The notes beneath the pieces were generated by a model that saw only the letters and a program-made list of their open reading frames with translations, ran no database searches and was not told the DNA's origin. The translations under genes were made by a program, and so were the position numbers. From an uncultured Burkholderiales bacterium (GTDB lineage Bacteria; Pseudomonadota; Gammaproteobacteria; Burkholderiales; CAZDFJ01): a stretch of 64,000 nt of DNA. Numbering within the stretch: position 1 is the first letter of the stretch; each line of letters begins with the position of its first letter. Where the stretch lies: positions 23,225-87,224 of the forward strand of contig CAZDFJ010000005.1 of the NCBI GenBank assembly GCA_964504875.1. Direction: 5' to 3'. Positions 12,370 through 50,699 of the stretch are shown here, in pieces.

Positions 12370-12389
12370 TTTCTTAAAAAAAGAAGAAG

Positions 12390-12422
12390 GCCGTCTCATT
12401 AAAAAAATGACGGCTTTTTTTT
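12390..12422 (+). terminator. rho-independent terminator of MCP-1
   Basis: gccgtc ... gacggc stem followed by a T8 run, 20 nt after the stop. Confidence 0.7.
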
Positions 12423-12640
12423 CAAAAATGCTGTGTTTCTGTTACACTCAAATGATTCTGATAGAAAATAATTCTCATTTTTTTTGTTGACGAGAGATTT
12501 AATTAGATATTAAGACCTTAAAATCTTTTTATTCTAGATAAAACACCCTTTTAAATATAAAAATGAGATGTGTAATTAAGTAAGTTTAATCAAAAATATG
12601 GTACCTTTGTTTAACTATTATTAACTAAATTGCATTTTTA

Positions 12641-13573
12641 TTAAAATGCATGTGATTGCTGAAAATAAAGCTTTTGATACTCTACTGCGAGCTGTACTGT
12701 CTGAAAATAAATTTCGACTGTATCCAGAATATTGACTGCATATCCACCGGCCATACAAATGGCAATTGGAATGTGGCGCGTCAGACAGCTTTCAAAAACA
12801 AGTTGATCTCGATGCATAAGGCCTTGTTTTGAAAGATTTAAACGGCCCAGCCGATCGCCTTGATAAGGATCTGCTCCCGCTAAATAAATGACCAAATCAG
12901 GTTGTACCATCGTGAAAACATAACTGAGGCCTTGTTGCAAAGCATGCAAATAATCCTCATCAGTGGTGCCATCCGGAAGCGGAATATCCAAATTACTGTG
13001 CTCTTTTGTAAAGGGGAAATTATTTTCACCATGAATTGAAAAAGTAAAAATAGACTCATCTTGATGGCAAATAGAAGCTGTGCCATTCCCTTGATGTACA
13101 TCACAATCGATAATAATCACGGATGAAATTAACCCTTCATTTTGCAGGGTTCGCGCGGCAACCGCACTATCATTAAAAAAGCAAAACCCCTGCCCTTTGT
13201 CAAAAAAAGCATGGTGGGTTCCTCCCGCTAAATTAATCGCAATGCCGGATTGTAAAGCGGCCCGAGAGGCATCAATTGTGGCACCAACAGAACGCCGGGC
13301 GCGTTCCACAGCAGCAGGCGACCACGGCAGCCCAATTTGTTTGGTTTCGTGGGCAGAAAGCAAACCTTGATGTACCCGTTTAATATAATCAAGAGAATGC
13401 GCTAATTCAAGCTCCTCATTAGTTGCTGCATGAGGGCGAATAAAATCAATCTGTGGATTTAATTTAGTCCGGACATATTCTCGTAATAGGTGATATTTCT
13501 CCATAGGAAAACGATGATTTGGAGGTAAAGGTAGTACAAATTCATCAGTGTAAAAAACGGGTAATTTCATCAT
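12641..13573 (-). CDS. histone deacetylase-family (class II HDAC/AcuC-like) deacetylase
   Basis: GGTHHAF..GQGFCFFND...IIIDCDVHQGNGT active-site region. Start moved to MMKLPVFYTDEF because the upstream track extension is AT-rich nonsense. Confidence 0.85.
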   Translation of the reverse strand: MMKLPVFYTDEFVLPLPPNHRFPMEKYHLLREYVRTKLNPQIDFIRPHAATNEELELAHSLDYIKRVHQGLLSAHETKQIGLPWSPAAVERARRSVGATIDASRAALQSGIAINLAGGTHHAFFDKGQGFCFFNDSAVAARTLQNEGLISSVIIIDCDVHQGNGTASICHQDESIFTFSIHGENNFPFTKEHSNLDIPLPDGTTDEDYLHALQQGLSYVFTMVQPDLVIYLAGADPYQGDRLGRLNLSKQGLMHRDQLVFESCLTRHIPIAICMAGGYAVNILDTVEIYFQTVQLAVEYQKLYFQQSHAF

Positions 13574-13846
13574 AAGAATCATAAAAAGTTGTTGGGATAA
13601 AAAAATTTTTTGTTTATTGTAACAATAAATACATTTAATAATTCGAGTGATTTTAATAGTTGTTTTGATTAAAAATACAGTATTTTTTATTCTCCTTCTA
13701 ATCAATATACAAATTATGACAAAGAGTGATTTAAAAAGCTCAAATTAAATAATAATAATGAAATTTGTTTCTAATATTTTATGATATAATTATCCGCATA
13801 TAAAAAATAAATTTAAATAAAATCTCACAAAATGATGCTAAAAGTT

Positions 13847-13882
13847 AAATCCTTATTTTATATATGTGTTTTTTTTACAACA
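13847..13882 (+). promoter_or_regulatory. conserved upstream block (copy A), 207 nt before the MCP-2 start
   Basis: aaatccttattttatatatgtgttttttttacaaca matches 16640-16675 at 33 of 36 positions, at an equivalent distance from the start codon. Confidence 0.35.
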
Positions 13883-14088
13883 AATTACTACTTAGGTCAT
13901 TTATTTAATATAAAATTAGAGTAAAACTAGCTTATAAATGTAAAAAATAATATGTTTTTTGTAAAAATAACAAAATTAAATAAGATTTAAATCCTCAAAA
14001 AGGATATTTTTTTCAAATTGATCAGATTTTTTTGTCAGTATGTCTTTTAATTTTTTCTCAATTTCTGTAATTTTTTGGGGGCTTGAGG

Positions 14089-16299
14089 ATGTTTGAGCGT
14101 GTGAGTATTCGGGCGAAATTATGGCTCATTATGCTAGTCGCATTTGTAGGTATGATGGTCGTTACACTTTTTGGATTTCATATTTATAAATCAACGTTAA
14201 TTTCTGAGAAGATAGATAAAATCCAAGCAGCAGTCAGAATTGTGACAAGCGTACTAGATTATTATAATCATGAGGTCAGTGTTGGGCACTTAACAAAGGA
14301 TGCAGCACAAGAACGTGCGCGGACCATGATTGAAAAAATTGCGTATGAAAAAGAAGGTTATTTTTGGGTTGTCAATAATAGCGGAATTGTGATCAGTCAT
14401 CCTTATGCGACGCAGTTAGTTGGGACAAATGCGATGGATTTGCGGTCCACCGACGGTAAGAAAATCGTTCAAGAAATTTTGTCTGATTTAAAACAAAATG
14501 AGGCCGGAAAGATTATTTCGTATCAGTGGCAAAACCCTAAAGAGAATACACCCCGCGAAAAATTGAGTTATGCGCAAGCGTTCGCGCCGTGGGGATGGGT
14601 TGTGGTTTCGGGTGTATATATTGATCATATTGAACATTCTTTTTGGACAAATGCCATGCCTATGGGCATCACAATTACACTAACCATGTTCATTTTAGTT
14701 TTGACGGGCTTTTTCCTTTTTAAGAGCATTACATCCAATATTGATCTTATTTTGCATTATTTAAATAATATTGCGAATGGAAAATATGATGAAGATTTAG
14801 ACATTCCGCGTGGCAAAACAGAAATGCGGGCAGTTTTACTCGCACTCAAAAAAACCCAAGAAGAATTACGGCAATATATTTCCGCGCTACAGGAATCACT
14901 CAAACAAACTGAAATCATGAAAATTACACTCGATAATGTAACAACCTGTGTGATGATTAGTGATCCGGCGCATAAAATTGTTTACTTAAACAAAGCGGCG
15001 ACGAGCATGTGGGCTAAAAATGAACACATGATTAAAAAACAAATGCCGAACTTTTCCGCAAAAGATTTGTTGGGTTCCAGCATTGATGATAATCATAAAA
15101 ATCCAAAACATCAGCACGAATTACTTGAGAAATTGCAATCTGTGTATCGTTCTGAATTACGACTCGGCGGATTATATATGCGTTTTTCGGCGATTCCCAT
15201 TTTTGATTATGATAACCAACGAATTGGGACGGCGATTGAATGGTTTGACGATACTAAACAATATTTAATTCAAAACGAAATTGACAATGCGGTGGGAGCG
15301 GCGATTACTGGCGATTTTTCGCAAAAAGTTAATATTGGACAAATTGAAGGCGTTAATCACAGTATTGGAGAAGGAATCAATCGATTATTAGATAATACAG
15401 GCCGGGTGGTCGCCTCCATTGCAGAAATGATGGAAAGCATTGCAGATGGCGATTTGCGTCATCGAATTGAGCATTCATTTGAAGGAGTCTTTCAACAAAT
15501 TGTTGATGACGTCAATCTTACTACGGACCGATTATCAACCCTTATTGCAAATATCAAAGAAAGTGCAAATTTAATTCGATTTGCTTCTTCTGAGATTTCT
15601 TCGGGCAATATATCGCTTTCCGAACGAACAGAAAAATCAGGTTATAGCATTATTCAAACGGGTCAAAATATTTTGAACCTTAAAAATATGCTCGAAAAAA
15701 ATGCCTCCAGTGCCAAAGAAGCTAATGCGATGGTTTCTCAAACCTCAAATGTAGCGCATCAAGGTGAGCATGTTATGCAACAAGTCATTGAAACAATGCG
15801 TTATATTCGTGAAAGTTCCCAGAAAATTGAAGAAATTATTCACGTCATTGATGGCATAGCGTTTCAAACGAATATTTTGGCGCTCAATGCAGCAGTAGAG
15901 GCGGCCCGGGCCGGCGAACAAGGAAAAGGCTTTGCTGTGGTCGCAAGCGAAGTGCGTAGTTTAGCGCAACGTTCTGCCTCTGCATCAAAAGAAATTCGAA
16001 CCCTGATTATGAATTCTGTTTCTCGCATTGAAGAGGGCGCTTCCCTTGTTGAAACAGCGGGAAGCACGATGAATGACATCATGAATTCTGTCAATGCAGT
16101 GACTACCATTATGGATGCAATTAATCAAGCCTCTCATGAACAAATGGACGATATTATTGCAGTGAATCATGCCATTAGTGATATTGACAATGTCACACAA
16201 CAAAACACCGCGCTTGTAGAAGAAGTCGCCGCCGCCAGCGAAACGCTTCAAGAACAAGCAATGCAATTGGTTCGTGTCATTTCTAACTTTAAATTATAA
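14089..16299 (+). CDS. methyl-accepting chemotaxis protein (sCache_2-like, TM, HAMP, PAS, MA)
   Basis: [14 protein letters not shown]...W.WVVVSGVY Cache-like sensor; [43 protein letters not shown] 14089 is preferred to the TTG at 14083. Confidence 0.9.
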
Positions 16300-16332
16300 T
16301 ATTTATTATTTTCTAATCCCGCTACTTGCTTA

Positions 16333-16366
16333 AACCAGAAATGTTTATCATTTCTGGTTTTTTTTT
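16333..16366 (+). terminator. rho-independent terminator of MCP-2
   Basis: aaccagaaatg-tttat-catttctggtt followed by a T-run. Confidence 0.85.
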
Positions 16367-16639
16367 ATAACAAGAAAACAGAATAAAATCTGAAAAAAAC
16401 AAAGGCAAGTTTTTTTTATAAAAACAGATTTTTTTCTATTTCACACAAAAAAAATCAGGCTATTTAAGTTTTTCTTAAGTAGAAATATGCCCCCAAAAAA
16501 TGCGCAGAAAGCACGTTTATTTTCCTAAAAATATTTTATAAAAAATCAAATATTTAACTAAATTAAATATATTTTAAGATATATAAATCCCAATATAAAT
16601 AAAAAATATTATCAATTCAGGATTTAATCTAGAAAAAAT

Positions 16640-16675
16640 AAACCCCTATTTTATTTATGTGTTTTTTTTACAACA
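16640..16675 (+). promoter_or_regulatory. conserved upstream block (copy B), 204 nt before the MCP-3 start
   Basis: aaacccctattttatttatgtgttttttttacaaca; see copy A. Confidence 0.35.
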
Positions 16676-16878
16676 TAAATAAAATTAGTGGGGCTTTTTA
16701 ATCCAAAAAGTAAGACAAATTATTTTTTATAAATAGAAAAAATAATATTTTATATTAGAAATTTTAAATAAAATCCCTTGTAAAATAAGGGGTATTTATC
16801 GCTATCATAATTTGAATAAAACAAAAATAATATCTGAAATCATATTGTTTTATTACATTTTATAAACAAAGGAAAATA

Positions 16879-19107
16879 ATGATGTTGCACTTGTTTGATC
16901 AATTGAGTATTCGCGCTAAACTTTATTGGATGATCATTATGGCGCTTTTAGGCATGATTATTGTCACTTTAGTTGGATTTAATTTATATAGGGAAAGTTT
17001 AATTCTAGAAAAAACGCGTCAAGTTAAAGCGTCCGTCCGAATTGCAACAAATTTAATGTCATATTATGATGCGCAAATCCGGGGGGGGGGGGGGGGTACA
17101 AAATCAGTGGCACAAATGCGGGTCAAACAGATTTTGGAACAAACCCAATATGACACGGACGGTTATTTTTGGATTATTGATACCAATGGCCAAGTAATTA
17201 GTCATCCATATGCGAAACAATTTGTGGGCAAAAATGTTTTTGATCAAAAATCGACAGATGGCAAACTTTTTATTCAAACACTTTTATCCACACTACGTAC
17301 TACTTCTCAAACGGAACAATTGATCACTTACACATGGCAAAATCCACAAGATTCTCAGCCGCGTGAAAAAATGAGTTATGCCCAAATTTTTGTTCCATGG
17401 GGCTGGATTATTGTTTCCGGATTTTATACGGATCAAATAGAACAGTCATTTTGGAATAATATTTTCCCGACTGCATTGGTTATTTTTCTTACGATGTTGG
17501 GATTAGTTTTAGCCGGCCGCGTTCTTTTTAAGAATATTTTAGAATCCATTGATTTAATTTTATATTATTTAAATCAGCTTGCTGACGGTAGATGTGACCA
17601 ATTTATTGAAATTTTGCATCCAAAAACAGAAATGGGTTGTGTCCTCCGTGCATTGAAGAAAACACAAGAGGAATTACGGCAATATATTTCTGCATTGAAA
17701 GAGTCATTAAATCAAAATGAAATCATGAAAATGACTTTAGATAATGTCACTACAGCAGTCATGATTAGCGATCCGGATAATAAAATTATTTATGTCAATA
17801 ATGCGGCCCAAAAAATGTGGGTCGATAACGAAAAAATGATTCAGCAACAAATTCCCAGTTTTTCTGCGGCCAATTTGTTAGGGTCCAGTATTGATGACAA
17901 TCATAAAAATCCCAAATATCAACATGATTTGTTAGAAAAATTGCAGAATGTCCATCGTTCTCAATTACGTTTGGGCGAATTACATATGCGCTTTGCGGCG
18001 ATTCCCATTTTTGATTACGAAAATAAGCGGGTTGGCACCGCCATTGAATGGTTTAATGACACAAAACAGTATTTGATTCAACAAGAAATTAATAAAGTCG
18101 TGACCGCAGCAATCTCTGGCGATTTTTCGCAAAAAGTCACATTAGGTCATGCAGAAGGGATTCATCATAGCGTTGTGACGGGAATGAATCGCTTATTAGA
18201 CAATACTGGCCAAGTTGTGATGTCGATAGCACAAATGATGAAAAAAATTACTGAAGGCGATTTACGTCATCGGATTGATAATCATTTTGAGGGAATATTT
18301 CAACAAATTGTTGAAGATGTCAATAAAACGACAGATCAGCTTGCTTTAATTATTTCAAATATTAAAGATAGCTCAAATTTAATTCATTCCGCTTGTGCCG
18401 AGATTTCTGAAGGAAATATCGCGCTCTCTCAACGGACGGAAAAATCAGCTGATAGTGTGATTCAAACGGTTCAAAATACAGTCACCCTAAAAACGGTACT
18501 TGAGCGTAACGCGTCCAGTGCTAAAGAAGCAAATATGATGGTCACGCAAACCGCAAGTGTGGCATTACAAGGCCAAAAAGTTATGCATGATGTCGTGGAA
18601 AAAATGGGATATATTCACGATAGTTCAAAAAAAATCGAGGAAATTATTCGTGTTATTGATGGCATAGCGTTTCAGACAAATATTTTAGCACTCAATGCGG
18701 CTGTGGAGGCGGCGCGGGCGGGCGATCAGGGGAAGGGTTTTGCAGTCGTTGCCAACGAGGTGCGTCATTTAGCACAACGATCGGCTTCCGCCTCAAAAGA
18801 AATTCGAGAACTCATTATGCATTCTGTTTCTCGCATTGAAGAGGGGGCAATGCTTGTTGAAAAAGCCGGATCGACGATGAATAATATTATGGATTCTGTG
18901 AATGGCGTCACCCATATGATGGATGAAATTAATCGGGCTTCTCACGAACAAATGAAAGAAATTACGTCTGTTAATCATGCCATTCATGAAATTGATCAGA
19001 TTACACAACAAAATACGGCACTCGTAGAAGAAGTCGCCGCCGCCAGCGAAATGCTACAAGAACAAGCGACTCAGCTCGTAAAAGTTGTTGAAAATTTTAA
19101 ATTATAA
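16879..19107 (+). CDS. methyl-accepting chemotaxis protein, tandem paralog of 14089-16299
   Basis: Collinear with MCP-2 over its full length and shares the same C-terminus (NFKL). SD AAGGAAAATAATG. Confidence 0.9.
17081..17096 (+). repeat. 16-nt poly-G homopolymer inside the MCP-3 coding sequence
   Basis: atcc-G16-taca encodes RGGGGGT. It is currently in frame. Confidence 0.95.
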
Positions 19108-37731: not shown

Positions 37732-37873
37732 CAATGGATGCTTTTTTTTTATAAAATAAAAAAAATACTACTGAGAAAGCGTTTATTTTATTTTTCAAAT
37801 GCGATAAGGAGAGGGGCAGGATGGCACAATAAAAAAACATATTGTGTCTTCATTAATTACCCAACAGCAAATT

Positions 37874-39445
37874 ATGAATCATCAAAAAATATTGATTTTA
37901 GATTTTGGCTCGCAATATACGCAATTAATTGCGCGCCGCGTCCGAGCGATGCAAGTATATTGTGAATTACATCCTTATGATGTTTCCATGGATTTTGTCC
38001 GAGCGTTTAATCCGAAGGGAATTATTTTGTCAGGGGGCCCTGCTTCTGTCACAGTCAATGATCCGGAAACGCCTCGTGCTCCCCAAGAAATTTTTGAATT
38101 AGGCGTGCCTATTTTAGGCATTTGCTATGGTATGCAAACTTTAGCGGCCCAATTAGGGGGGCGCGTTGAACATGGCAAAACGCGAGAATTTGGTTATGCC
38201 GAAGTGGAAATCCTGAAAGAAAATCCTTTATTTCGCGGTTTGCAAGATCACGAAAATCATCATGGTCGTTCTGCGTTAGAAGTGTGGATGAGTCATGGCG
38301 ACCAAGTCTCAACGTTACCGGATGGTTTTGAGTCTATTGGGGGCAATTTTCACACTCCTATTGCAGCGATGGCCGATGAAGTCAGACGTTTTTATGGTGT
38401 ACAATTTCATCCAGAAGTGACACATACCCGTCAAGGGGAAGCCATGTTGCGGCGGTTTGTCTTTGATATTTGTCGCATTTTACCTGATTGGCGTATGCCT
38501 GATTTTGTTGATGAAGCGGTCGAACGGATTCGTCAACAAATTGGCCAAGATGAAGTCATTCTCGGCCTATCTGGGGGGGTGGATTCTTCCGTCGCCGCGG
38601 CATTAATTCACAAGGCTATTGGCGATCAATTGACATGTATTTTTGTCGATAATGGTTTATTGCGCTTGCATGAAGCAGAACAAGTGATGTCTACTTTTGC
38701 CCAAAACTTAGGGGTGAAAGTGATTCATATTGATGCGAGTGAACAATTTTTGACCGCGCTCGCAGGCGAGACGGATCCAGAGAAAAAACGTAAAATTATT
38801 GGGTCAGAATTTGTCAATGTTTTTCAAGCTGAAGCCCAAAATTTACCTCAGGCAAAATGGCTTGCACAAGGAACCATTTATCCAGATGTGATTGAATCCG
38901 CAGGGTCCAAAACTAAAAAAGCGCACGTTATTAAATCCCATCATAATGTCGGCGGGCTCCCTGAAACGTTACATTTAAAATTACTAGAACCTTTACGTGA
39001 GCTTTTCAAAGACGAAGTTCGGGAATTGGGTTTGGTCTTAGGCTTACCTCGCGATATGATTTATCGCCATCCCTTCCCAGGTCCTGGTTTGGGGGTTCGT
39101 GTCTTGGGAGAAATTAAACGCGATTATTTGGATTTATTGCGTCGTGCGGATGCAATTTTTATTGAGGAATTACACAAAGCCCATTGGTATGATCGTGTTT
39201 CTCAAGCCTTTACTGTCTTTTTGCCAGTCAAATCCGTTGGCGTCATGGGAGATGGCCGGACATATGAATATGTTGTAGCTTTACGCGCCGTAGAAACCAC
39301 TGATTTTATGACAGCTACATGGGCAGAATTACCTCATACGTTATTAGCGCGTATTTCTAATCGTATTATTAATGAAGTGCGCGGTATTAATCGCGTTGTT
39401 TATGATATTTCTGGTAAGCCACCTGCAACCATTGAGTGGGAATAA
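37874..39445 (+). CDS. guaA: GMP synthase (glutamine-hydrolysing)
   Basis: GATase N-terminus [19 protein letters not shown]-loop SGGVDSS and the conserved C-terminus PPATIEWE. Start ambiguous (ATG 37874 or GTG 37844). Confidence 0.95.
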
Positions 39446-39452
39446 TTTTTTT

Positions 39453-39953
39453 ATGAGCGCACCTTTTACAGCACAAGATGAACAATTTATGCGCTATGCG
39501 CTCACGCTTGCCCAAAAAGCCGCCGATCAGGGAGAGGTTCCTGTCGGTGCAATTGTTGTCTGTCAGAATGAAATTATTGCTGAGGGGTTTAATACCCCTA
39601 TTTCTAAAAATGACCCGAGCGCGCATGCGGAAATGGTCGCTTTGCGTGCGGCGGGGCAAATTCGTCAAAATTATCGCTTGATGGATTGTCGTTTGTATGT
39701 CACGCTCGAACCCTGCATGATGTGTATTGGGGCGATTTTACACGCTCGTTTAGATCAAGTCATTTTTGGGGCGTTTGATCCAAAAACAGGGGCAGCAGGC
39801 AGTGTCATTAATCTTTTTGAAGAATCCCGATTAAATCATCATACAAAATGCGTAGGGGGATTACTAGAATCCGAATGTAGTTTGATTTTGAAAACTTTTT
39901 TTCAAGATCGACGGCGTTTGCAAAAAGAAAAAAAAGCCCAGCAACGCGAATAG
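39453..39953 (+). CDS. tadA: tRNA adenosine(34) deaminase
   Basis: HAEMVALR and PCMMCIGA zinc motifs. Start moved to ATG 39453, just after the guaA stop. Confidence 0.9.
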   Translation: MSAPFTAQDEQFMRYALTLAQKAADQGEVPVGAIVVCQNEIIAEGFNTPISKNDPSAHAEMVALRAAGQIRQNYRLMDCRLYVTLEPCMMCIGAILHARLDQVIFGAFDPKTGAAGSVINLFEESRLNHHTKCVGGLLESECSLILKTFFQDRRRLQKEKKAQQRE

Positions 39954-41250: not shown

Positions 41251-42666
41251 TTAGAGAACGTAACGGGCTAAATCTTCGCTCGCTGCAATATCTTGTAAAG
41301 ATTGGTCAACATAGGCTTTATCAATAATCAACTCAATCACTGCCTCTGGCTCGCCCCCATTGAAAGAGACTTCTTCTAGTAATTTTTCCATGACTGTATA
41401 CAGACGCCGTGCCCCGATATTTTCCATTTTTTCATTAACTTGATGAGAAATCTCAGCAAGACGCGTGATGCCTTCTTCCATAAAACGGACATGAATTTGG
41501 TCTGTTGCCAACAAAGCTTCATATTGACGGGTCAGACATGAATCAGTATTGGTCAAAATCTGTTTGAAATCTTCGACGCTGAGAGAATCTAACTCCACAC
41601 GAATAGGAAAACGTCCTTGCAACTCTGGAATTAAATCAGACGGTTTTGCTAAATGAAATGCACCACTCGCAATGAATAAAATATGATCCGTTTTGATCAT
41701 GCCGTATTTAGTTGAAACGGTCGTCCCTTCCACAAGCGGTAATAAATCACGTTGTACACCTTGACGAGAAACTTCCCCACTATTTGTTTCGTTTCTACTA
41801 GTAATTTTATCAATTTCATCTAAAAAAACAATACCATTTTGTTCAACGCTTTGTACTGCTTTTGTTTTTAAATCTTCATCATTGACGAGTTTTAAACTTT
41901 CTTCTTCAATGATGGTTTTCATGGCATCTTTGATTTTAAGCTTCCGTGCTTTTTTCCGATTGTTCCCCATATTTTGGAACATTCCTTGGATTTGAGAAGT
42001 TAAATCTTCCATTCCAGGGGGCGCAAAAATTTCCATATGAGGGCCATTTGTCGCAACTTCAATCTCGATTTCTTTTTCATCAAGTTGCCCTTCCCGTAAC
42101 ATTTTACGGAATTTTTGGCGTGTCGGATTTTCCGAAGCATTGGCAGAGGGATTCGTGGCAATGGCTTGTTTTAATTGATTTTGTTCTTCAGAAGACAATC
42201 CGCTTGAAAAACCAAAATCTAAATTGGTATTTTCACGCGCACTGGGCAATAAAACATCTAAAATACGTTCTTCAGCAAGGTCTTGTGCCCGCTCTTTCAC
42301 TTTTTTTGTTTCTTGCTCACGAATTTGCTTAATTGCAGATTCAACTAAATCGCGAATAATTGAATCAACATCGCGTCCAACATAACCCACTTCGGTAAAT
42401 TTTGTAGCTTCCACTTTGATAAATGGCGCGTTGGCTAATTTCGCTAAACGACGGGCAATTTCAGTTTTACCCACCCCTGTTGGCCCAATCATTAGAATAT
42501 TTTTCGGGGTAATTTCTTGACGAAGGGGGGAAGGGACTTGCTGGCGACGCCACCGGTTGCGCAAAGCAATCGCAACGGCCCGTTTAGCCGCTTTTTGTCC
42601 CACAATGTGTTTATCTAATTCTTGCACAATTTGAGACGGTGTTAATTGTGAATTTGCGGAAGACAT
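41251..42666 (-). CDS. hslU: ATP-dependent protease ATPase subunit HslU
   Basis: Walker [16 protein letters not shown] and full-length HslU architecture. Confidence 0.96.
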
Positions 42667-42720: not shown

Positions 42721-43260
42721 TTAGGGCTTTAATACTTCAATAATGTGATTTTGATTTGTGTAAATACACAAATCTCCCGCAATAGTCAAACTTTTTTTCA
42801 CAATTTCTTCAGGATTCAGTTCTGTATTTTCCACAAGAGCCCGCGCAGAAGAATATGCATAAGATCCCCCACTCCCGATTGCCACAATACCATATTCAGG
42901 CTCTAAAATATCCCCATTTCCTGTGATAATTAAAGAATGATTTTTATCTGCAACAGCTAACATTGCTTCTAAACGCCGCAAAATACGATCCGTTCTCCAA
43001 TCTTTGGCTAACTCAACGGCCGCACGCATTAAGTGTCCTTGATGTTTTTCTAATTTGGCTTCAAAGCGCTCGAATAATGTAAATGCATCAGCAGTACTGC
43101 CTGCAAAACCAGCTAAAATTTTGTCATGATACAGACGTCTTACCTTGCGGGCTGTCGCCTTGACAACAATATTTCCTAATGTCACTTGCCCATCTCCACC
43201 CAGTGCTACATACTCGCCACGTCTCACTGAGAGAATCGTTGTACCGTGATATTGTTCCAT
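42721..43260 (-). CDS. hslV: ATP-dependent protease subunit HslV
   Basis: Catalytic N-terminal TTILSVRR, then GDGQVT; 179 aa. Confidence 0.96.
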
Positions 43261-43542
43261 AAAATTTGCCTAAAAAAGTAAGTTTTTTTAATAAGAATCG
43301 ATAAACCCAAACTTGGGCAATGCATCAAAAAATAATTTTTACAATGCTATTGAATCTCTTTGCTAATCTGTTTTATTATTCTCGTTCTATCGATCAATGA
43401 TTAGCCTTCATTCAAAATACGTGATGAAATGCATGTATTGTACTCAAATAAGTACTACTTATGAAAAATCAATCATTTTACTTATATTTTTTGAAATTTG
43501 TTTGTTTAACTATTACATAATAGTCTTTTTTTGTTATAAATA

Positions 43543-43638
43543 ATAGATAAAAAGCTTGTCTATTATATACGTTTTACAAAAAAAAGACAGTTTTTTATTT
43601 GATTTGTCTGGATAGATTTTGTCTTATTTTTATAGATA
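43543..43638 (+). promoter_or_regulatory. cluster of repeated TTGTCT and ATAGAT(A) hexamers (candidate operator array)
   Basis: ATAGAT(A) at 43543, 43612 and 43632; TTGTCT at 43556, 43604 and 43619. Includes the inverted repeat TAATAGA-N11-TCTATTA. Lies 120-215 nt upstream of the 43758 ORF. Confidence 0.3.
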
Positions 43639-43757
43639 AAACATATTTATCACGATAACACAGTCATATCAAAGAGGATTCTTTTATTTTGATTTTTTGT
43701 TATTAACAATATGTAAAAGACTTGTTTATTTACTTTCTCTTTGGATAGTCCAAAAAT

Positions 43758-45029
43758 ATGTACTCTTGGTTTCAGCCGCATACGCATTTTTTTATGGTAC
43801 ATGGAGAAATCTTTGATCATTTTTGTGGTGCCGATTTGGTGATGCGCACCCTTGATGAAAGTCTCATTTTACATTTAGAAACGATAGGGTACCGTCGTTT
43901 TTTTGGTTTTGCAGAACAGAATCAAAGTTTTAAATGTTTCGCGTATAATCTTGAATCATTAGAATGGTTTAATTTTGTGTTTCAAACTTATCAGAGTTTA
44001 TGTGTCGGATCGGCTCTGAATTACGAAGCCACTTTCCGCTTATTAAAAAAAATGTTCAATCGGGCCCATGACACTGTCTTTTTCATTAAAAGCCCACTTT
44101 TTATAGAAAGACTGGGATATGCTCATTTTGATGAGTTAATTCAATGGGAACTCACTTTAACACAGACAAATCTTATTATTCTCATTCAACCCCAACCTTT
44201 AGAAAACGAACGCTGGCAGACGCTTATTCAACCAGCTAAACAAAATTTGATTCACATTAGTACACCTTATCCTGACGAAATATTACATTTGATTTTACGG
44301 ATTCAATTAAACGATTCGTCTCGAACGTTAATCACACATGGTCAATGGACTAGTTTATCACAGCAAGCTTTTCAGCTCTATGCGCAGTTTTCTCAAAGTG
44401 AGCTCTTTCCACTTAAACGACTTTCTTTACTTTATGCAGCATTACGTAAAAGATTGATTCGTCTTGAGCCAAATCAAGGACTTTATGCTTTAAAAAGCCT
44501 GACTTCCCCTGAAATAGTCAAAAAGGTGGAAAAAAAAATAGATCTTTTTCAGAAAAAATGGCTTAAACTTCATCAAGACACAATACAGCGCCTATTACCC
44601 TCTCAAGATCGTCATTTTATTTACCATACATTAGGTATATATCGTCAATTTGATTTAGATAAATTGAAACAGTTTGTGACGCGTTTTGCACAAGCCTATT
44701 ACGAAAGCGGATTATTAGCGTCAAAACATTGTGTCTTTTTTTTGGCGACGCAATTATTAGGTTCTTCTATTGAAGAAACTGAGCAGCGGACACGTCTTGC
44801 GATCCAAAAAGCACAAGGAGGCGTCCTTTGTTTATTTAAACTTGAATTATTGACTCAAGAAATGTATGGAAAGGACGTTATTCGAGAATTAATTCGTATG
44901 ACACAGCGGAACGAAAAACCCTTACACGTGCTCGGTTGGACGCAACGATATACGGAAAAAACACTGATTCAATTGGATTCGCGTATTTTTGAGTTTTTCC
45001 TTCCGCAAGAAGCCCTTGTTCTCTCATAA
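43758..45029 (+). CDS. hypothetical protein with two tandem degenerate AAA+-like (CbbX/SpoVK-type) halves
   Basis: C-terminal half: GGVLCLFKLE (cf. GGVLFIDEAY) and PLHVLGWTQRY...LDSRIFEFFLPQ (cf. AGY...NPGL.SRF...F.dy). N-terminal half: TVFFIKSP, NLIILIQ and IHISTPYPDEILHLILR. No GxxxxGK[ST] occurs in either half. Confidence 0.55.
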   Translation: MYSWFQPHTHFFMVHGEIFDHFCGADLVMRTLDESLILHLETIGYRRFFGFAEQNQSFKCFAYNLESLEWFNFVFQTYQSLCVGSALNYEATFRLLKKMFNRAHDTVFFIKSPLFIERLGYAHFDELIQWELTLTQTNLIILIQPQPLENERWQTLIQPAKQNLIHISTPYPDEILHLILRIQLNDSSRTLITHGQWTSLSQQAFQLYAQFSQSELFPLKRLSLLYAALRKRLIRLEPNQGLYALKSLTSPEIVKKVEKKIDLFQKKWLKLHQDTIQRLLPSQDRHFIYHTLGIYRQFDLDKLKQFVTRFAQAYYESGLLASKHCVFFLATQLLGSSIEETEQRTRLAIQKAQGGVLCLFKLELLTQEMYGKDVIRELIRMTQRNEKPLHVLGWTQRYTEKTLIQLDSRIFEFFLPQEALVLS

Positions 45030-45059
45030 TCTTTTTTACTTGTAAAATATATAAAAAAA

Positions 45060-46565
45060 ATGACAATTTTGTTGTGTCGATATCGACATGTTTTTACAGG
45101 GTTCTTTTTCTGTTTATTATCATGGTTTTCGCTGATAAGTCATGCAAATTCAGTGGAGATTCCCCAAAAACGTGTAGCTTTGGTCATAGGAAATAGCCAA
45201 TATGAAAATGAGAAATATTATTTGCCCAATGCAGTGAATGATGCCAAAGCCATTCAAGAAGTGCTGCGGCGTTTGGGTTTTGAAGTCACATTTATTGAAG
45301 ATGTTCGTAAAACGCATATGGCAAAAATCTTAATTGATTTTTCAAAAAAAATGGATCATGCCGAAAATGGTATTTTCTTTTATGCCGGCCATGCTTTTGA
45401 AGTGAATCATCACAATTATTTGGTTCCTGTAGATGCACGGGCGATTCCCGTCAAAGATCAAGCAGAATTACAATTACATCTCAAAAGTGATTTTATCGAT
45501 TTTAATGATATTTTAGAAGTTTTAAAAAAAAATCAGACTGTTAAAAACCGGGCCAATTTAATTTTTTTGGACGCCTGCCGTGACAACCCTTGGCGCGAGG
45601 CTTTGCAAAACAAAAAACGGGCCATTATGACAGAAACACATTTTGCTCCCATCGTTGCCGCGCCTGGAAACCATATTTATTATTCAACACAAAGTGGGAC
45701 GCAAGCTTATGATGCTTCTAATAGAGATAATCAACATAGTCCTTATACTGAAGCACTCTTAGAATATATGCAAAAATATCGCTATATTGATGTCCAAATT
45801 TTACAAAAATATCTCAAAAAACATGTCAAAGAACTCACCCAACATGAAGAAGAAGGCGCACAAATTCCACAATATGTTTCACTGAATGTGCCCGCAGATT
45901 TAGAGCAAAAAAAGACAGCAAAATGGGGAATAATAACAGGGGGGTTGATTGGAAGTAGTGGTCTTTTCGTTTTGGTTTTATATTGGAGAAAACATCAAAA
46001 ATCAGTGCAGCAGACCAATCAAGAAGCCCATTTAGCAGAGACAGACTCACCACAAGAAGCAGAAACCTTGCTTAATCAGGCGAAACATCACTATCAAAAT
46101 CAAGACTACGCTTCCGCTATTGCGCAGTATAACGCGATTCTCACAAAATATCCGACATTAACGCTGGCTTATTATGGTCGTGCAAAAGCGTATGATCATT
46201 TAGGCAAGTATGCGCTGGCACAGACGGATTATACTCACGCATTGCGCGCTCATCCACAAGAAGCAAATTTTTATTATCGCCGTGGATCGTGTGCAATGAA
46301 ACTGAAACAACTGCAGCAAGCTCAGTCTGATTATGAAGCCGCTATTCGTTGTGATCAACGTTATTTTGCAGCCTACGCCGCATTAGGGGCACTGTACTAC
46401 GGGCAAAATCAATATGAACAAGCATTAGAACAATATAATTGGGCGATTGCATTAAATCCACGGTCTGCGCGGTATTATCAAATGCGGGCGCATATCAAAA
46501 CAAAATTGGGAGATCTGAGCGGCGCGGAAAAGGACCAGCACATAGCCAAAGAAATCACGATTTAA
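45060..46565 (+). CDS. caspase-like (peptidase C14) protein with N-terminal signal/anchor, central TM helix and C-terminal TPR repeats
   Basis: RVALVIGNSQY...LPNAVNDA; catalytic His in FFYAGHAF and Cys in IFLDACRDNPW. TM WGIITGGLIGSSGLFVLVLYW, then about 4-5 TPR units (YYGRAKAYDHLGKYALAQTDYTHALRAHP etc.). Confidence 0.8.
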   Translation: MTILLCRYRHVFTGFFFCLLSWFSLISHANSVEIPQKRVALVIGNSQYENEKYYLPNAVNDAKAIQEVLRRLGFEVTFIEDVRKTHMAKILIDFSKKMDHAENGIFFYAGHAFEVNHHNYLVPVDARAIPVKDQAELQLHLKSDFIDFNDILEVLKKNQTVKNRANLIFLDACRDNPWREALQNKKRAIMTETHFAPIVAAPGNHIYYSTQSGTQAYDASNRDNQHSPYTEALLEYMQKYRYIDVQILQKYLKKHVKELTQHEEEGAQIPQYVSLNVPADLEQKKTAKWGIITGGLIGSSGLFVLVLYWRKHQKSVQQTNQEAHLAETDSPQEAETLLNQAKHHYQNQDYASAIAQYNAILTKYPTLTLAYYGRAKAYDHLGKYALAQTDYTHALRAHPQEANFYYRRGSCAMKLKQLQQAQSDYEAAIRCDQRYFAAYAALGALYYGQNQYEQALEQYNWAIALNPRSARYYQMRAHIKTKLGDLSGAEKDQHIAKEITI

Positions 46566-47608
46566 TGACTGGCAGAAAGAGCATGACTCAACAATTTAGC
46601 CGTCATATCCACAATTGGAATCATTTTTTCATAATTCATGCGCATAGGCCCAATCACACCTAATGTGCCGACAACTTGATGATTAATTTCATATTGGGAA
46701 GTAATCATACTACAAGCTTGAATAGGCATCAGTTCGTTTTCACCCCCAATAAAAATATGGACCCCTTGCGCTTTTTGGCCCGCATCGAGCAAAGCCAACA
46801 GTTTGTTTTTTTGTTCCAGAAGTTCAAAAAGTTGGCTGAGCTGCCCCATATTGTGGGTTAAATCTTGAGAACGTAATAAATTACTTTCACCGCTGATGAT
46901 ATATTCTTCGCGTTCTTGTTGGACCATTTCTTGACTTAAAGAAACCGCCGTTTTGAGCAAATCCATAATATGATGTTGCAATGAACTAAGTTCCCGTTGT
47001 AACGTGTTCATCATTTGGTGAAATTCTTGATTCGCATAGTGGGCATTAATACAATTTGCTGCCTGAATCAGTTCGTTTTGTGAATAATTTTGGGCGGTCA
47101 TCAAAATTTTATTTTGAATTTCACCATTTGTCATGACAATAATCAACAAAACGCGATTTTCATTTAGGCGAATAAATTCAAGCTGCTTAAACGTCGCTAT
47201 TCTTTTGCGCGGCAACATGACCACTCCAGCAAAGTGCGTGAGTTCTGAAAGCGCGTGAGAAGTGGATAAAATTAATTCTTGAGGAGATAAGGCAATATGC
47301 TGTGTCGTTTCTTTTTGAAAAAGATAGGATTCTAAACGTTGTGTTGCTACAAGATCTAAAGGTTGAACCGTCAATAATGAGTCAATAAAAAAGCGATAGC
47401 CTTTCGCGGTCGGGATTCTTCCTGCGGATGTATGCGGACTGAGTAAATAACCGGCTTCTTCAAGTTGGCCCATAATATTTCGAATGGTGGCCGCGCTAAT
47501 ATCTAATCCAGCATGTTTGGCAAGGGTTTGTGAACCAACAGGTTGCCCCTCACGAATATGTCGTTCTACCAGTGTTTTTAATAAAATTTGCGCACGTTTT
47601 GTCAGCAT
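46562..47608 (-). CDS. hrcA: heat-inducible transcription repressor HrcA
   Basis: MLTKRAQILLKTLVERHIREGQPVGSQTLA...ATIRNIMGQLEEAGYL. Confidence 0.93.
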   Translation of the reverse strand: MLTKRAQILLKTLVERHIREGQPVGSQTLAKHAGLDISAATIRNIMGQLEEAGYLLSPHTSAGRIPTAKGYRFFIDSLLTVQPLDLVATQRLESYLFQKETTQHIALSPQELILSTSHALSELTHFAGVVMLPRKRIATFKQLEFIRLNENRVLLIIVMTNGEIQNKILMTAQNYSQNELIQAANCINAHYANQEFHQMMNTLQRELSSLQHHIMDLLKTAVSLSQEMVQQEREEYIISGESNLLRSQDLTHNMGQLSQLFELLEQKNKLLALLDAGQKAQGVHIFIGGENELMPIQACSMITSQYEINHQVVGTLGVIGPMRMNYEKMIPIVDMTAKLLSHALSASH

Positions 47609-47723
47609 AGGGACTTATTTCATCATTTTTGTACGATCTAAAAAAGAACTGCTCTTTATTAAAATGGCTTGTCTTTGTCTTGTTTCAAGGTAATTTGCCC
47701 ATTTTTTATTTTTGTGTCCTTTT

Positions 47724-48944: not shown

Positions 48945-50699
48945 CTAAGGTAAAGGATAGAATAACTCAATGTGATAATTAATCGCTTGTAATTGATTTA
49001 ATTTTAAATGAATTTGGACTTGTGTTTCTTGCTTACTGGGTAAGCCTCGCTTGAGGACTTTCAGATCGTGATTAAGATTTAAATATTCAGTTGGATGAAC
49101 AAACCGGCGCCCGACCACTTGCCCTTGGTTATTGCTCAGCTCTAACATAATACTTGGAAAGGTGACTGCATAGGCCGCGTGATTCGCCAATGTAATATGT
49201 AAAGTGACCATATCTGTTGCATTGACATGGGCTTGCTCCATATCTGAGCCCACCACCGCTAATTGCTCTAATACTCGCGGCGGATCCATATCACATCCTA
49301 TTATGCCACAAGAAGTTTCAAAAAAAGGCTTCATTGTCGGATAGAGATTGATTAAATCCATCCTAAAAAAGAACAATGATTGGAACAGTAAAATAAAACT
49401 ACTCACTACACTGAGAATCAGCCAATATTTTCTTTTGGGATCGGTTTGTTTTTCTTCTGTTGTGTCAACAGAAACGAAAACGAGGGGATCTTCCTGTTTT
49501 TTTGCTAAATCGACAGGCGGCAATTCAGGAGAAATCGGTTCTTGTGGAGGAGATTCTATTTTAAATTCTTCTAAATCAACAACCGCGCTACTCTCAAGAG
49601 GGCTGTCTAATGCCGGATCAGGGGGCGAGGCGACCGCCTCTTTTTTTTCTTCATCAAAATCCAAAGAAAAATCTAACGCGGGCTTTTCTTGTTTTTTTGC
49701 CTCACTCTCTTCTAAATCCAAATTCAGATCATAAAGGGGCGTTTTTTCAGTGTCTTTCTTTTCAGCTGTGCCCTCAAAATCATCCGAAAAATCCGGTGCG
49801 GGCCCTTGTTCTTCTGTTTTCTCTTCTTCCTCATCATCCTCAATTGGAATCGCTTCAAACTCAATAGTACTAAACAAGTCATCATCTTGAATAGATTGCG
49901 GCAGCGTATTTTTTTTCGGAATTTCTATAGGGGGCGGCGGCACAGCAGGGGCTTCTGCCTTTATCTCTGGTGAGCTTGGCACAACTGGCGGGACAATCGG
50001 TGCAGGTGTTTCCTGTTGCTTAGGTTTTTTTAAAGGCACAACTGTATGACTTGTTGTTTTTTCTTTTTCTTCAACCGGTTTTTGTTCTCCAGAATCAGAA
50101 GGCGTGTGATCATTAGCTGCTTCTGTTTTCATGAGCGCCGCAGGAATTTGCTCAGTGGCTTCTTTATTTTTTTCTTTAGCAAGCTTATCAGCACGTAATC
50201 CATTAAGCATACTATCAAAATCAAATTCCCCTGTATTGTCGGGAGTGCCTGAGCGAAAGGCATTCGACAGATCGTTTGCCTCAAGCGGGGGCGGATTTTC
50301 GCCCCATTGTTTTTGTTCTTCAGCAAAACTACTTGCAAAACCTTGATAGCGTCTCCGTGGCGGGATTGTCGCCTCTAGATCTTCTGTATTTTTAGTTTTG
50401 TTTTCAATAATCTCTTTTGAAGGCGGTTCTGCTTTCTTTGTGACAGGAGTGTCCCCTTCTTCTTTTTTACTTGGAACAGGGGGAGGGGCGGCCTCAAGTG
50501 GGGACGAAACAGGCGGCGCTTTAGCGACTGGAGGCGGCGTAATCTTTTCTAAAGAAGATTTCGCATTAAAAATTTGTCCACACGATCCACAACGTACCTG
50601 CCCTTGTCGGGCTTGGAGTTGCGCTTCATTAATTTTGAAACGCGTATGACAAGCAGGACATGTCGTACGAAAGAAATTTGTGGAAGGTGTGGTTGACAT
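48945..50699 (-). CDS. MJ0042-type zinc-ribbon / DUF3426 protein with a long acidic, Pro-rich linker
   Basis: N-terminus TCPACHTRFKI...VRCGSCGQIFNA, a roughly 350-aa low-complexity region, a TM (YWLILSVVSSFILLFQSLFFF) and a C-terminal DUF3426-like domain. Lies next to prmA. Confidence 0.75.
   Translation of the reverse strand: MSTTPSTNFFRTTCPACHTRFKINEAQLQARQGQVRCGSCGQIFNAKSSLEKITPPPVAKAPPVSSPLEAAPPPVPSKKEEGDTPVTKKAEPPSKEIIENKTKNTEDLEATIPPRRRYQGFASSFAEEQKQWGENPPPLEANDLSNAFRSGTPDNTGEFDFDSMLNGLRADKLAKEKNKEATEQIPAALMKTEAANDHTPSDSGEQKPVEEKEKTTSHTVVPLKKPKQQETPAPIVPPVVPSSPEIKAEAPAVPPPPIEIPKKNTLPQSIQDDDLFSTIEFEAIPIEDDEEEEKTEEQGPAPDFSDDFEGTAEKKDTEKTPLYDLNLDLEESEAKKQEKPALDFSLDFDEEKKEAVASPPDPALDSPLESSAVVDLEEFKIESPPQEPISPELPPVDLAKKQEDPLVFVSVDTTEEKQTDPKRKYWLILSVVSSFILLFQSLFFFRMDLINLYPTMKPFFETSCGIIGCDMDPPRVLEQLAVVGSDMEQAHVNATDMVTLHITLANHAAYAVTFPSIMLELSNNQGQVVGRRFVHPTEYLNLNHDLKVLKRGLPSKQETQVQIHLKLNQLQAINYHIELFYPLP

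Follow-up and report, generated by a model that had tools for sequence, protein, structure and literature searches.

The window analysed here is a stretch of 64,000 nucleotides from contig CAZDFJ010000005.1 of an uncultured Burkholderiales bacterium, and our subject is a pair of co-directional genes in it, called gene 1 and gene 2 below, that lies between hslVU and hrcA. Gene 1 (423 aa) is predicted to encode a cytoplasmic protein of two AAA+-like modules without nucleotide-binding motifs, and gene 2 (501 aa) a membrane protein that combines a caspase-like protease with tetratricopeptide repeats (TPRs). The two genes are separated by 30 nt. On the upstream side hslV and hslU are divergent from gene 1, from which they are separated by an AT-rich spacer with a GC content of 0.23 as compared to 0.35-0.45 around it; the spacer presumably holds the promoters of both hslV and gene 1. 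On the downstream side hrcA is convergent with gene 2 and overlaps it by 4 nt, the sequence TTAA (46562-46565) being shared by both stop codons. The open reading frame (ORF) map reproduces exactly the layout that had been described in an earlier, sequence-only reading of this stretch, including the gap, the spacer of 497 bp and the overlap with hrcA. The identity of the neighbours is secure in that HslU, HslV, HrcA, LolA, RibF, TadA and GuaA all exceed the curated NCBIfam cut-offs. Within the spacer no credible small ORFs were found, promoter and terminator scans of the region of the pair gave matches at chance level, and an Rfam search of the window returned no match.

Table 1. Positions of the gene pair, of its predicted domains and of the adjoining features in the window
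Feature	Position	Strand	Basis and remarks
hslU	41251-42666	-	ORF map
hslV	42721-43260	-	ORF map
AT-rich spacer between hslV and gene 1	43261-43757	.	497 bp
Gene 1, predicted cytoplasmic protein, two AAA+-like modules, no nucleotide-binding motifs	43758-45029	+	ORF, AlphaFold2 model, Foldseek
Gene 1, N-domain, residues 1-235	43758-44462	+	modelled AAA+-like α/β core (~10-170) and helical lid (172-235)
Gene 1, second module, residues ~286-423	44613-45026	+	modelled CbbX/SpoVK-type AAA+ α/β core, lid absent
Gap between genes 1 and 2	45030-45059		30 nt
Gene 2, predicted bitopic membrane protein, caspase-like protease and TPRs	45060-46565	+	501 aa; ORF, Pfam
Gene 2, signal-peptide-like N-terminus, residues 1-29	45060-45146	+	basic n-region, hydrophobic core, SHA/NS end
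Gene 2, Peptidase_C14 domain, residues 37-277	45168-45890	+	PF00656; predicted periplasmic
Gene 2, predicted central transmembrane helix, residues ~289-309	45924-45986	+	WGIITGGLIGSSGLFVLVLYW, then RKHQK; hydropathy 1.83 (residues 289-307)
Gene 2, 4-5 TPR motifs, residues ~334-500	46059-46559	+	TPR_1, TPR_2, TPR_16 and others; predicted cytoplasmic
hrcA	46562-47608	-	ORF map

Gene 1 matches no family in a Pfam scan, and a hydropathy scan found no hydrophobic segment, signal sequence or transmembrane (TM) helix in it. The NCBIfam model of SpoVK matches its residues 310-387 weakly (E 6e-5), the scores lying far under the family cut-offs for SpoVK (TIGR02881, 22.1 against 423 bits) as well as for CbbX (TIGR02880, 11.6 against 459 bits), and no match was reported for the EccA model TIGR03922. 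The second module also shows a weak sequence match with the solved CbbX structures 3zuh and 3syl (E 0.03). An AlphaFold2 model of the whole protein, which was based on a 24-sequence alignment, has a predicted local distance difference test score (pLDDT) of 79.4 and a predicted template modelling score (pTM) of 0.77. In a Foldseek search with this model the best matches (E ~2e-7) were Rix7, p97/Cdc48, NVL and NSF, with alignments of 470-490 columns, and CbbX (3syk) was matched with an E value of 4e-6. Since the TM-scores of the whole model to double-ring AAA+ proteins are low (0.25-0.33) and its two halves lack profile similarity, the N-domain was modelled separately. The resulting model (pLDDT 82.9, pTM 0.80) found exclusively AAA+ proteins among its top 50 Foldseek matches in the PDB (E 7.5e-4 to 1.4e-2), the best being ATAD2 (TMq 0.53), followed by Yta7, ORC/Cdc6, Cdc48, RFC and FtsH. 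The idea that the N-domain is a sequence-level duplicate of an AAA module was rejected (hhalign probability 0.06), and it is the fold that speaks for its assignment to AAA+. With core and lid taken as the marks of this fold, the models place gene 1 within it, the N-domain having the core and a helical lid and the second module the core only.

Neither gene 1 nor its closest homologue (P0002) contains a Walker A motif (GxxxxGK[ST]). In a column-by-column alignment with the first AAA module of the long family members described below, the second module of gene 1 reads GIYRQFDL where these have the Walker A sequence GNPGTGKT, and LCLFKLEL in place of the Walker B sequence LFIDEAY, the pattern hhhhDE being absent. 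Its chain moreover stops short of the lid, and motifs and lid are likewise lost in P0002. The second module of gene 1 has kept the Arg (R409) of the SRF motif, and at the expected P-loop position the N-domain reads GEIFDHFCG. By its predicted structure gene 1 combines two AAA+-like modules, neither of which has nucleotide-binding motifs, as the sequence-only reading had supposed. That reading had further assumed that both modules have lost these residues, which stands for the second module but not for the first: the family comparison indicates that the absence of a P-loop from the first module is ancestral, being common to all of the parent family and so also to members with active modules, and that motifs and lid of the second disappeared within this lineage. 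The loss of the motifs predicts that the gene 1 protein does not hydrolyse ATP.

The origin of gene 1 is apparent from an exhaustive HMMER search of 1.84 billion representatives (~15 billion proteins), which returned 70 hits at E<=1e-3. P0002 was found at 7e-142 and the next match at 1.3e-16, and every hit except P0002 is a tandem AAA+ protein. Eight of these long forms were scanned against Pfam and all contain PF00004 together with AAA_lid_6 repeats; those long forms that were scanned against NCBIfam show modules of the SpoVK/CbbX/EccA type. Many of them (for instance P0133, P0190, P0136 and P0173) can be aligned collinearly with gene 1 over their first ~470 residues, residues 5-65 of gene 1 corresponding to long-form residues 5-65, its residues 160-366 to residues 230-445, and its second module to the first AAA module. 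Residues 310-395 of gene 1 can in addition be aligned with each of the AAA modules in the 70 hits. There is no Pfam family for the N-terminal ~300 residues of the long forms. This region is conserved, with the consensus G.T.D.FC, GY.RI.FY, TAVVF, N.NI..F.FP and I.I..P..DEI.N, and residues G16, D20, F22, Y45 and E174 are invariant throughout the family, gene 1 included. The N-domain profile is located N-terminally in 34 of the 70 hits and is followed in 33 long forms by 1-5 Walker A motifs. Gene 1 has the N-domain too, but the intact Walker A module that follows it in the family is absent from gene 1 and from P0002. In a word-index protein search the same profile returned only P0001 and P0002. 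Taken together, these sequence comparisons indicate that gene 1 derives from the N-terminal ~470 residues of a tandem CbbX/SpoVK-type AAA+ family. The kinship with EccA-type fusions of TPRs and AAA+ modules that had been brought forward for the pair is thus not borne out, as the nearest kin of gene 1 consist of the N-domain plus tandem CbbX-type AAA+ modules and none of the 70 contains a caspase domain or TPRs. What does occur in this family is a C-terminal trypsin-like domain, which is present in 11 of the 70 hits.

The long forms are themselves found in a recurrent gene cluster (L003:2561-11136; L004:514-3701; L005:3044-8837; L006:5055-11246; L007:1-10345, to which L008 is identical). It comprises an NrdG/PflA-like radical-SAM protein of ~200 aa (40-46% identity between loci), an Hsp70-like protein of ~530 aa (32% identity between loci) and, encoded directly upstream of the AAA+ gene, a protein of 441-516 aa that belongs to no Pfam family (25-44% identity). 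No PADLOC system and no published description were found for this cluster, which looks like an undescribed multi-gene system. The radical-SAM protein, the 440-520-aa protein and the Hsp70-like protein are present in L003-L008 and absent around gene 1. Neither the N-domain of the parent family nor its radical-SAM/Hsp70-like cluster has a description in Pfam or PADLOC, and this family may be a broader lead than the pair itself.

The assignment of gene 2 is straightforward. Its protease domain matches PF00656 over profile positions 1-228 of 233 (E 4.4e-35, 121.9 bits against a cut-off of 21.4), and the catalytic residues His111 (YAGHA, codon 45390-45392) and Cys173 (DACR, codon 45576-45578) are both invariant in the orthologues. 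By family score and intact His/Cys dyad gene 2 is a bona fide C14 protein, for which proteolysis is predicted. Among solved structures, those nearest in sequence to the protease domain are entries for the paracaspase MALT1 (E 5e-9). The C-terminal repeats are matched by several Pfam TPR families, which span residues ~334-495 (E 1e-16 to 1e-9), and also by PDB consensus TPR proteins. As to topology, residues 11-29 have a hydropathy of 1.62 on the Kyte-Doolittle scale, and the N-termini of the orthologues stay hydrophobic and end in GHA/AE, though their sequence diverges. Likewise, the central helix has kept its hydrophobicity but not its sequence in the orthologue P0004. Membrane segments typically keep their hydrophobicity while the sequence diverges. 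If both hydrophobic segments insert, the caspase domain is predicted to be periplasmic and the TPRs to be cytoplasmic, and the description of gene 2 given in the sequence-only reading, with an intact C14 dyad, a periplasmic caspase and cytoplasmic TPRs, agrees with Pfam, motifs and hydropathy.

Caspase-TPR proteins are as such very common, and our search returned 5527 homologues at E<=1e-10. Among the best 120 of these that were listed most start with a hydrophobic segment, but a central helix at this position is found only in the orthologue group P0003 and P0004, and a second hydrophobic segment elsewhere only in P0052 and P0099, the latter of which has the reversed domain order. Since the other homologues listed lack the central helix, the usual caspase-TPR form appears to be wholly secreted and the split topology to be particular to this lineage. 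Bacterial caspase homologues are combined with TPRs more often than with most other domains, many of them start with a helix that is probably a signal peptide, and their fusions with TPRs have been catalogued but not characterised (PMC3501461).

Where gene 1 occurs, it is accompanied by gene 2. A word-index search with gene 1 recovered only the identical cluster and P0002 (55% identical), and in the exhaustive search the short form is likewise represented by just two clusters, both of which adjoin an orthologous membrane caspase-TPR gene. At locus L001, P0002 is encoded directly upstream of a 515-aa C14-TPR protein (L001:10814-12358), and at locus L002 the gene-2 orthologue P0004 (58% identical) lies directly downstream of a gene-1 homologue, the gene-2 orthologues of the two loci being 58-60% identical to gene 2. 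As P0002 and the gene-1 protein of L002 are nearly identical, these loci represent two lineages rather than three. The gene-1 homologue of L002 (L002:8667-10004) is almost identical to P0002 up to about residue 395 and then continues with an unrelated, longer C-terminus (445 aa), a difference that looks like a frameshift or an assembly difference. Genes 1 and 2 are 30 nt apart in the window and 64 nt in L001, and in L002 they overlap by 4 nt. No terminator was found between them, and in each lineage the pair has an upstream intergenic region of its own. The spacer of the window aligns weakly with the ~190-nt regions upstream of the gene-1 homologues in L001 and L002, which contain the terminator of the preceding gene. 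The co-occurrence with C14-TPR genes that had been proposed as a check of the pairing therefore holds wherever gene 1 occurs; it does so, however, within one clade of close relatives (HrcA 86% identical) and as phylogenetic evidence is weak.

Comparison of the window with L002 shows that both genes are genuine coding sequences on which purifying selection acts. Identity between the lineages is 57% for gene 1 and 58% for gene 2, as opposed to 86% for HrcA, 89% for the HDOD protein, 86% for RNase PH and 84% for PrmA, and nonsynonymous divergence (dN) amounts to 0.38 for gene 1 and 0.34 for gene 2 but only to 0.095 for hrcA. Both genes thus diverge 3-4 times faster than their housekeeping neighbours. 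The ratio of nonsynonymous to synonymous divergence (dN/dS) against the orthologous locus is ~0.17 for gene 1 and ~0.20 for gene 2, values that are to be read with saturated dS, and the first 75 residues of gene 1 are almost invariant. We also considered whether gene 1 is a pseudogene and rejected this in view of its ORF, which is intact at 55% identity, and its dN/dS. The distribution of the pair is very narrow: gene 1 and the gene-2 subtype with a TM helix both occur in one bacterial clade only. A look-up of the exact sequence of gene 1 returned no record. Scans of the GTDB species genomes gave no confirmed match for relatives of gene 1, nor for the HrcA of the window; an alignment scan of JGI metagenome contigs with the short form found no gene-1 relative and one with the N-domain of the long forms recovered only an already known locus; and there was no gene-1 relative in plasmids, phage genomes or viral contigs.

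Downstream of the pair the window and L002 share synteny, from hrcA through lolA, CNP1, DUF3426 and prmA onward. Synteny breaks immediately upstream of gene 1 and not between gene 1 and gene 2. In L002 the pair, still beside hrcA, is preceded by chemoreceptor and deacetylase genes, and the block of deacetylase, chemoreceptors, FecCD, RNase PH and DUF3683 that lies upstream of gene 1 there (L002:1-8666) is found in reverse order at 12.6-25 kb of the window. This arrangement (12600-43757 of the window) points to an inversion of ~30 kb, one end of which is in the AT-rich spacer.

This rearrangement bears on the suggestion that the pair interrupts two heat-shock loci in a functional sense. One could imagine that it belongs to the heat-shock or proteostasis apparatus, for example as a membrane-protein quality-control protease under the control of HrcA or σ32, as hrcA is adjacent in both lineages, hslVU is adjacent in the window, and gene 1 derives from chaperone-type AAA+ proteins. 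The pair of L002, however, stands without hslVU, whose adjacency is not conserved but results from the inversion, and hrcA is convergent and hence not co-transcribed with the pair. Moreover, the CIRCE inverted repeat has 0 matches within the window at up to 3 mismatches, and the spacer contains no σ32-like match, the whole scan being at chance level (31 found against 27 expected). Control of the pair by HrcA/CIRCE or by σ32 was rejected on these grounds, no such element having been found. Because both elements are absent and the adjacency stems from the inversion, the position beside hslVU is incidental; for the adjacency to hrcA we offer no explanation. We consider a heat-shock role of the pair very improbable, and the notion of a functional interruption does not hold. 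A sequence resembling a σ32 promoter (CTTGAAA-N14-GCCATT) is located at 47663-47689 on the minus strand, between lolA and hrcA and ~55 nt before the start of the latter.

But why would a protein that has been stripped of its nucleotide-binding motifs be retained next to a membrane caspase? We tentatively propose, as a possibility that we would not yet call probable, that the two genes form an operon that is specific to this lineage and has a promoter region of its own, and that their products act together across the inner membrane. The pseudo-ATPase would no longer hydrolyse ATP but would keep the AAA+ oligomerisation scaffold, a role in which degenerate AAA+ modules are known, as in the case of the D2 module of NSF. 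As a cytoplasmic adaptor it would bind the TPR array of gene 2, and docking on cytoplasmic TPRs is plausible. By clustering or releasing the membrane protein it would then set the proximity-dependent activity of the periplasmic caspase domain. Clustering is put forward as the mode of action because caspase-family enzymes are commonly activated by proximity, and the signal could equally run outside-in. The role of the pair would most likely be in the processing of envelope proteins or in a stress or suicide response of the clade, and the data do not say which.

Several lines of evidence support joint action of this kind. The geometry of the pair is operon-like, the pairing of the short form with the membrane caspase-TPR gene is exclusive, synteny is broken upstream of the pair but not within it, and the elevated divergence of genes 1 and 2 is matched. 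The predicted compartments would fit as well, since gene 1 appears to be soluble and the TM helix of gene 2 would place the TPRs in the cytoplasm. Finally, if the trypsin-like domains in 11 of the 70 relatives are a guide, the parent family was coupled to proteases already. Other observations weigh against it. There is no caspase or TPR fusion among the 70 relatives of gene 1, and no caspase or TPR gene stands beside the long forms in the loci inspected (L003-L008). Four other caspase-TPR loci have no gene-1-like neighbour. The adjacency of genes 1 and 2 is itself little discriminating, because all three loci come from close relatives in which hrcA, lolA and others are equally syntenic. The topology of gene 2 is a prediction from hydropathy alone, and the charges flanking the central helix are balanced, with three K before it and R, K and K after it. 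In the model of gene 1 the pLDDT is below 50 at residues 286-294 and 397-423, the latter comprising the C-terminal 27 residues. Lastly, loss of the Walker motifs is no proof that nucleotide binding is lost, and the protein may still have residual binding. As regards the loci without a partner, a 426-aa gene beside the caspase-TPR gene of L010 was considered as a distant relative of gene 1 and rejected, as its product is a secreted TPR protein.

Alternatively, the two genes may be neighbours by descent only, gene 2 being a lone envelope protease, as its thousands of secreted caspase-TPR relatives would be, and gene 1 a decayed fragment of a tandem AAA+ protein with an unrelated, a minor or no function. 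The abundance of caspase-TPR proteins, the four loci at which they stand alone, and the retention of the pair only among close relatives whose hrcA and lolA are just as syntenic would all fit, and gene 1 does resemble a truncation in that it ends within an AAA+ module with lid and motifs gone. Then again, a decaying fragment would not readily account for a full-length ORF at 55% identity with a dN/dS of ~0.17 and a nearly invariant stretch of 75 residues at its start, and neither the joint restriction of gene 1 and the TM-bearing gene-2 subtype to this clade nor the tight spacing of the genes at all three loci would follow from mere descent. We regard this explanation, the main rival, as somewhat less likely than joint action of the two proteins.

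The proposal of two proteins acting together across the membrane can be taken a step further, to a membrane-spanning, apoptosome-like device that operates without NTP hydrolysis. Here a ring or stack of the pseudo-AAA+ protein would capture the TPR tails and thereby cluster the periplasmic caspases by induced proximity, and a cytoplasmic cue would trigger periplasmic proteolysis for envelope remodelling or cell suicide. We hold this version to be rather unlikely. If it were true, it would represent a new coupling of an AAA+-derived scaffold to a caspase, in which a pseudo-ATPase would regulate the protease, as active tandem modules do in the parent family for the trypsin-like domains fused to them.

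The sequence-only reading had placed the pair among conflict and programmed-death systems, and an anti-phage or abortive-infection system can indeed be imagined, with the pseudo-AAA+ protein as sensor or decoy and the caspase as an effector, acting by damage to the envelope or by activation of a toxin. The combination of NTPase, protease and TPR recurs among predicted conflict systems (Kaur et al. 2020, PMC7159879). The long-form relatives give partial hits to IetA, the ATPase of IetAS, and contain trypsin domains like those of defence proteases, and the accelerated evolution of both genes and their narrow distribution would be in line with such a function. The surroundings, however, tell otherwise. 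The region is core chromosome: upstream of the pair the window carries genes for a HAD hydrolase, FBPase, a secretin and the RNR small subunit, together with topA, dprA, def, obg, guaA, tadA, ribF and hslVU, and downstream hrcA, lolA, prmA and methyltransferases, and near the pair there is no integrase, transposase or other mobile-element or defence gene. In PADLOC 2.0 gene 1 has 0 hits and no system was matched with both components; for gene 2 there is a 'caspase' match of 28 bits, and its TPRs spuriously match PrimPol. The model of the EACC1-associated caspase (NF047832) scores 30.9 bits on gene 2 against a cut-off of 140, and no EACC1-like gene adjoins gene 2. In addition, a periplasmic protease domain would be unusual for the sensing of a cytoplasmic invader, and plasmids, phages and viral contigs are devoid of gene 1. 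The conflict framing thus finds little footing at this locus, and we judge a defence function to be quite improbable.

A few features of the neighbouring genes deserve mention in their own right. Divergence greater than that of the pair is seen in a single neighbour, the DUF3426/zinc-ribbon protein (48945-50699, minus strand), which has a long, acidic, proline-rich middle region of low complexity and is 46% identical to its L002 orthologue. At 10153-19107 there are three tandem genes of the size of Cache-domain chemoreceptors (~740 aa each), and two of these (14083-16299 and 16879-19107) encode products that share 76% and 65% identity with the one receptor of L002, which points to a lineage-specific duplication. 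The tadA ORF as listed (39372-39953) starts 74 nt inside the end of guaA (37844-39445), and its first ~30 residues are hydrophobic and lie outside the match to the TadA profile, which begins at residue 34; the true start of tadA is probably further downstream.

Should the two proteins work together, they would provide a compact and tractable case of a dead AAA+ scaffold that regulates a caspase across the inner membrane. This bears on the control of bacterial caspase homologues, which despite thousands of caspase-TPR genes is largely obscure, and on the roles of pseudo-ATPases. For all that lies beyond the domain anatomy, that is for every functional step, it is a function that we infer. No library model and no paper describing the gene 1-gene 2 pair was found, in keeping with the earlier view that the pairing had not been described before. 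Three outcomes had been named that would have told against the sequence-only reading, namely that gene-1 homologues never neighbour C14/TPR genes, that no AAA+ fold is recovered, or that the pair is a known annotated family with an assigned function, and none of them was encountered.

How then does the pair compare with known systems? To CbbX (3syl, 3zuh), SpoVK and EccA, a subfamily of the classic-clade AAA+ ATPases, the second module of gene 1 is alike between Walker A and sensor 1, GGVLCLFKLELL aligning with GGVLFIDEAYYL and YGKDVIRELI with YGQEAIEILL. It differs from them in that gene 1 lacks Walker A, Walker B and the lid and has an extra N-terminal AAA+-like domain, and from EccA also in that the TPRs are located on gene 2 rather than in the gene 1 chain and that no type VII secretion (ESX) genes are nearby. 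With the unnamed family of N-domain plus 1-5 CbbX-type AAA+ modules gene 1 shares the N-domain, the collinear start and the invariant residues; different from this family, however, it is truncated, has no motifs and no cluster partners, and has a caspase-TPR gene as its neighbour instead. Gene 2, for its part, shares the C14 His/Cys dyad and the TPRs with orthocaspases and metacaspases fused to TPRs, but whereas the usual caspase-TPR protein appears to be secreted in its entirety and has no internal helix, its TM helix would split the two domains, and it has gene 1 as a partner.

The best structural matches to gene 1 as a whole, covering both modules, are type II AAA+ proteins with one inactive ring, such as p97/Cdc48, NSF and Rix7/NVL. 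Gene 1 differs from them in having two degenerate modules, of which the second is also incomplete, and no sequence relationship to them was detected beyond the AAA+ fold. IetAS and the apoptosome-type NTPase-caspase platforms, finally, share with the pair the logic of an oligomeriser of the AAA+ or STAND type that is combined with a protease. Unlike IetAS, gene 1 has no match to IetA and no active NTPase, and the C14 enzyme is predicted to be periplasmic rather than a cytoplasmic subtilase or caspase. On balance we view the pair as a variant, specific to its lineage, of the theme of NTPase scaffold and protease, in a combination that is undescribed.

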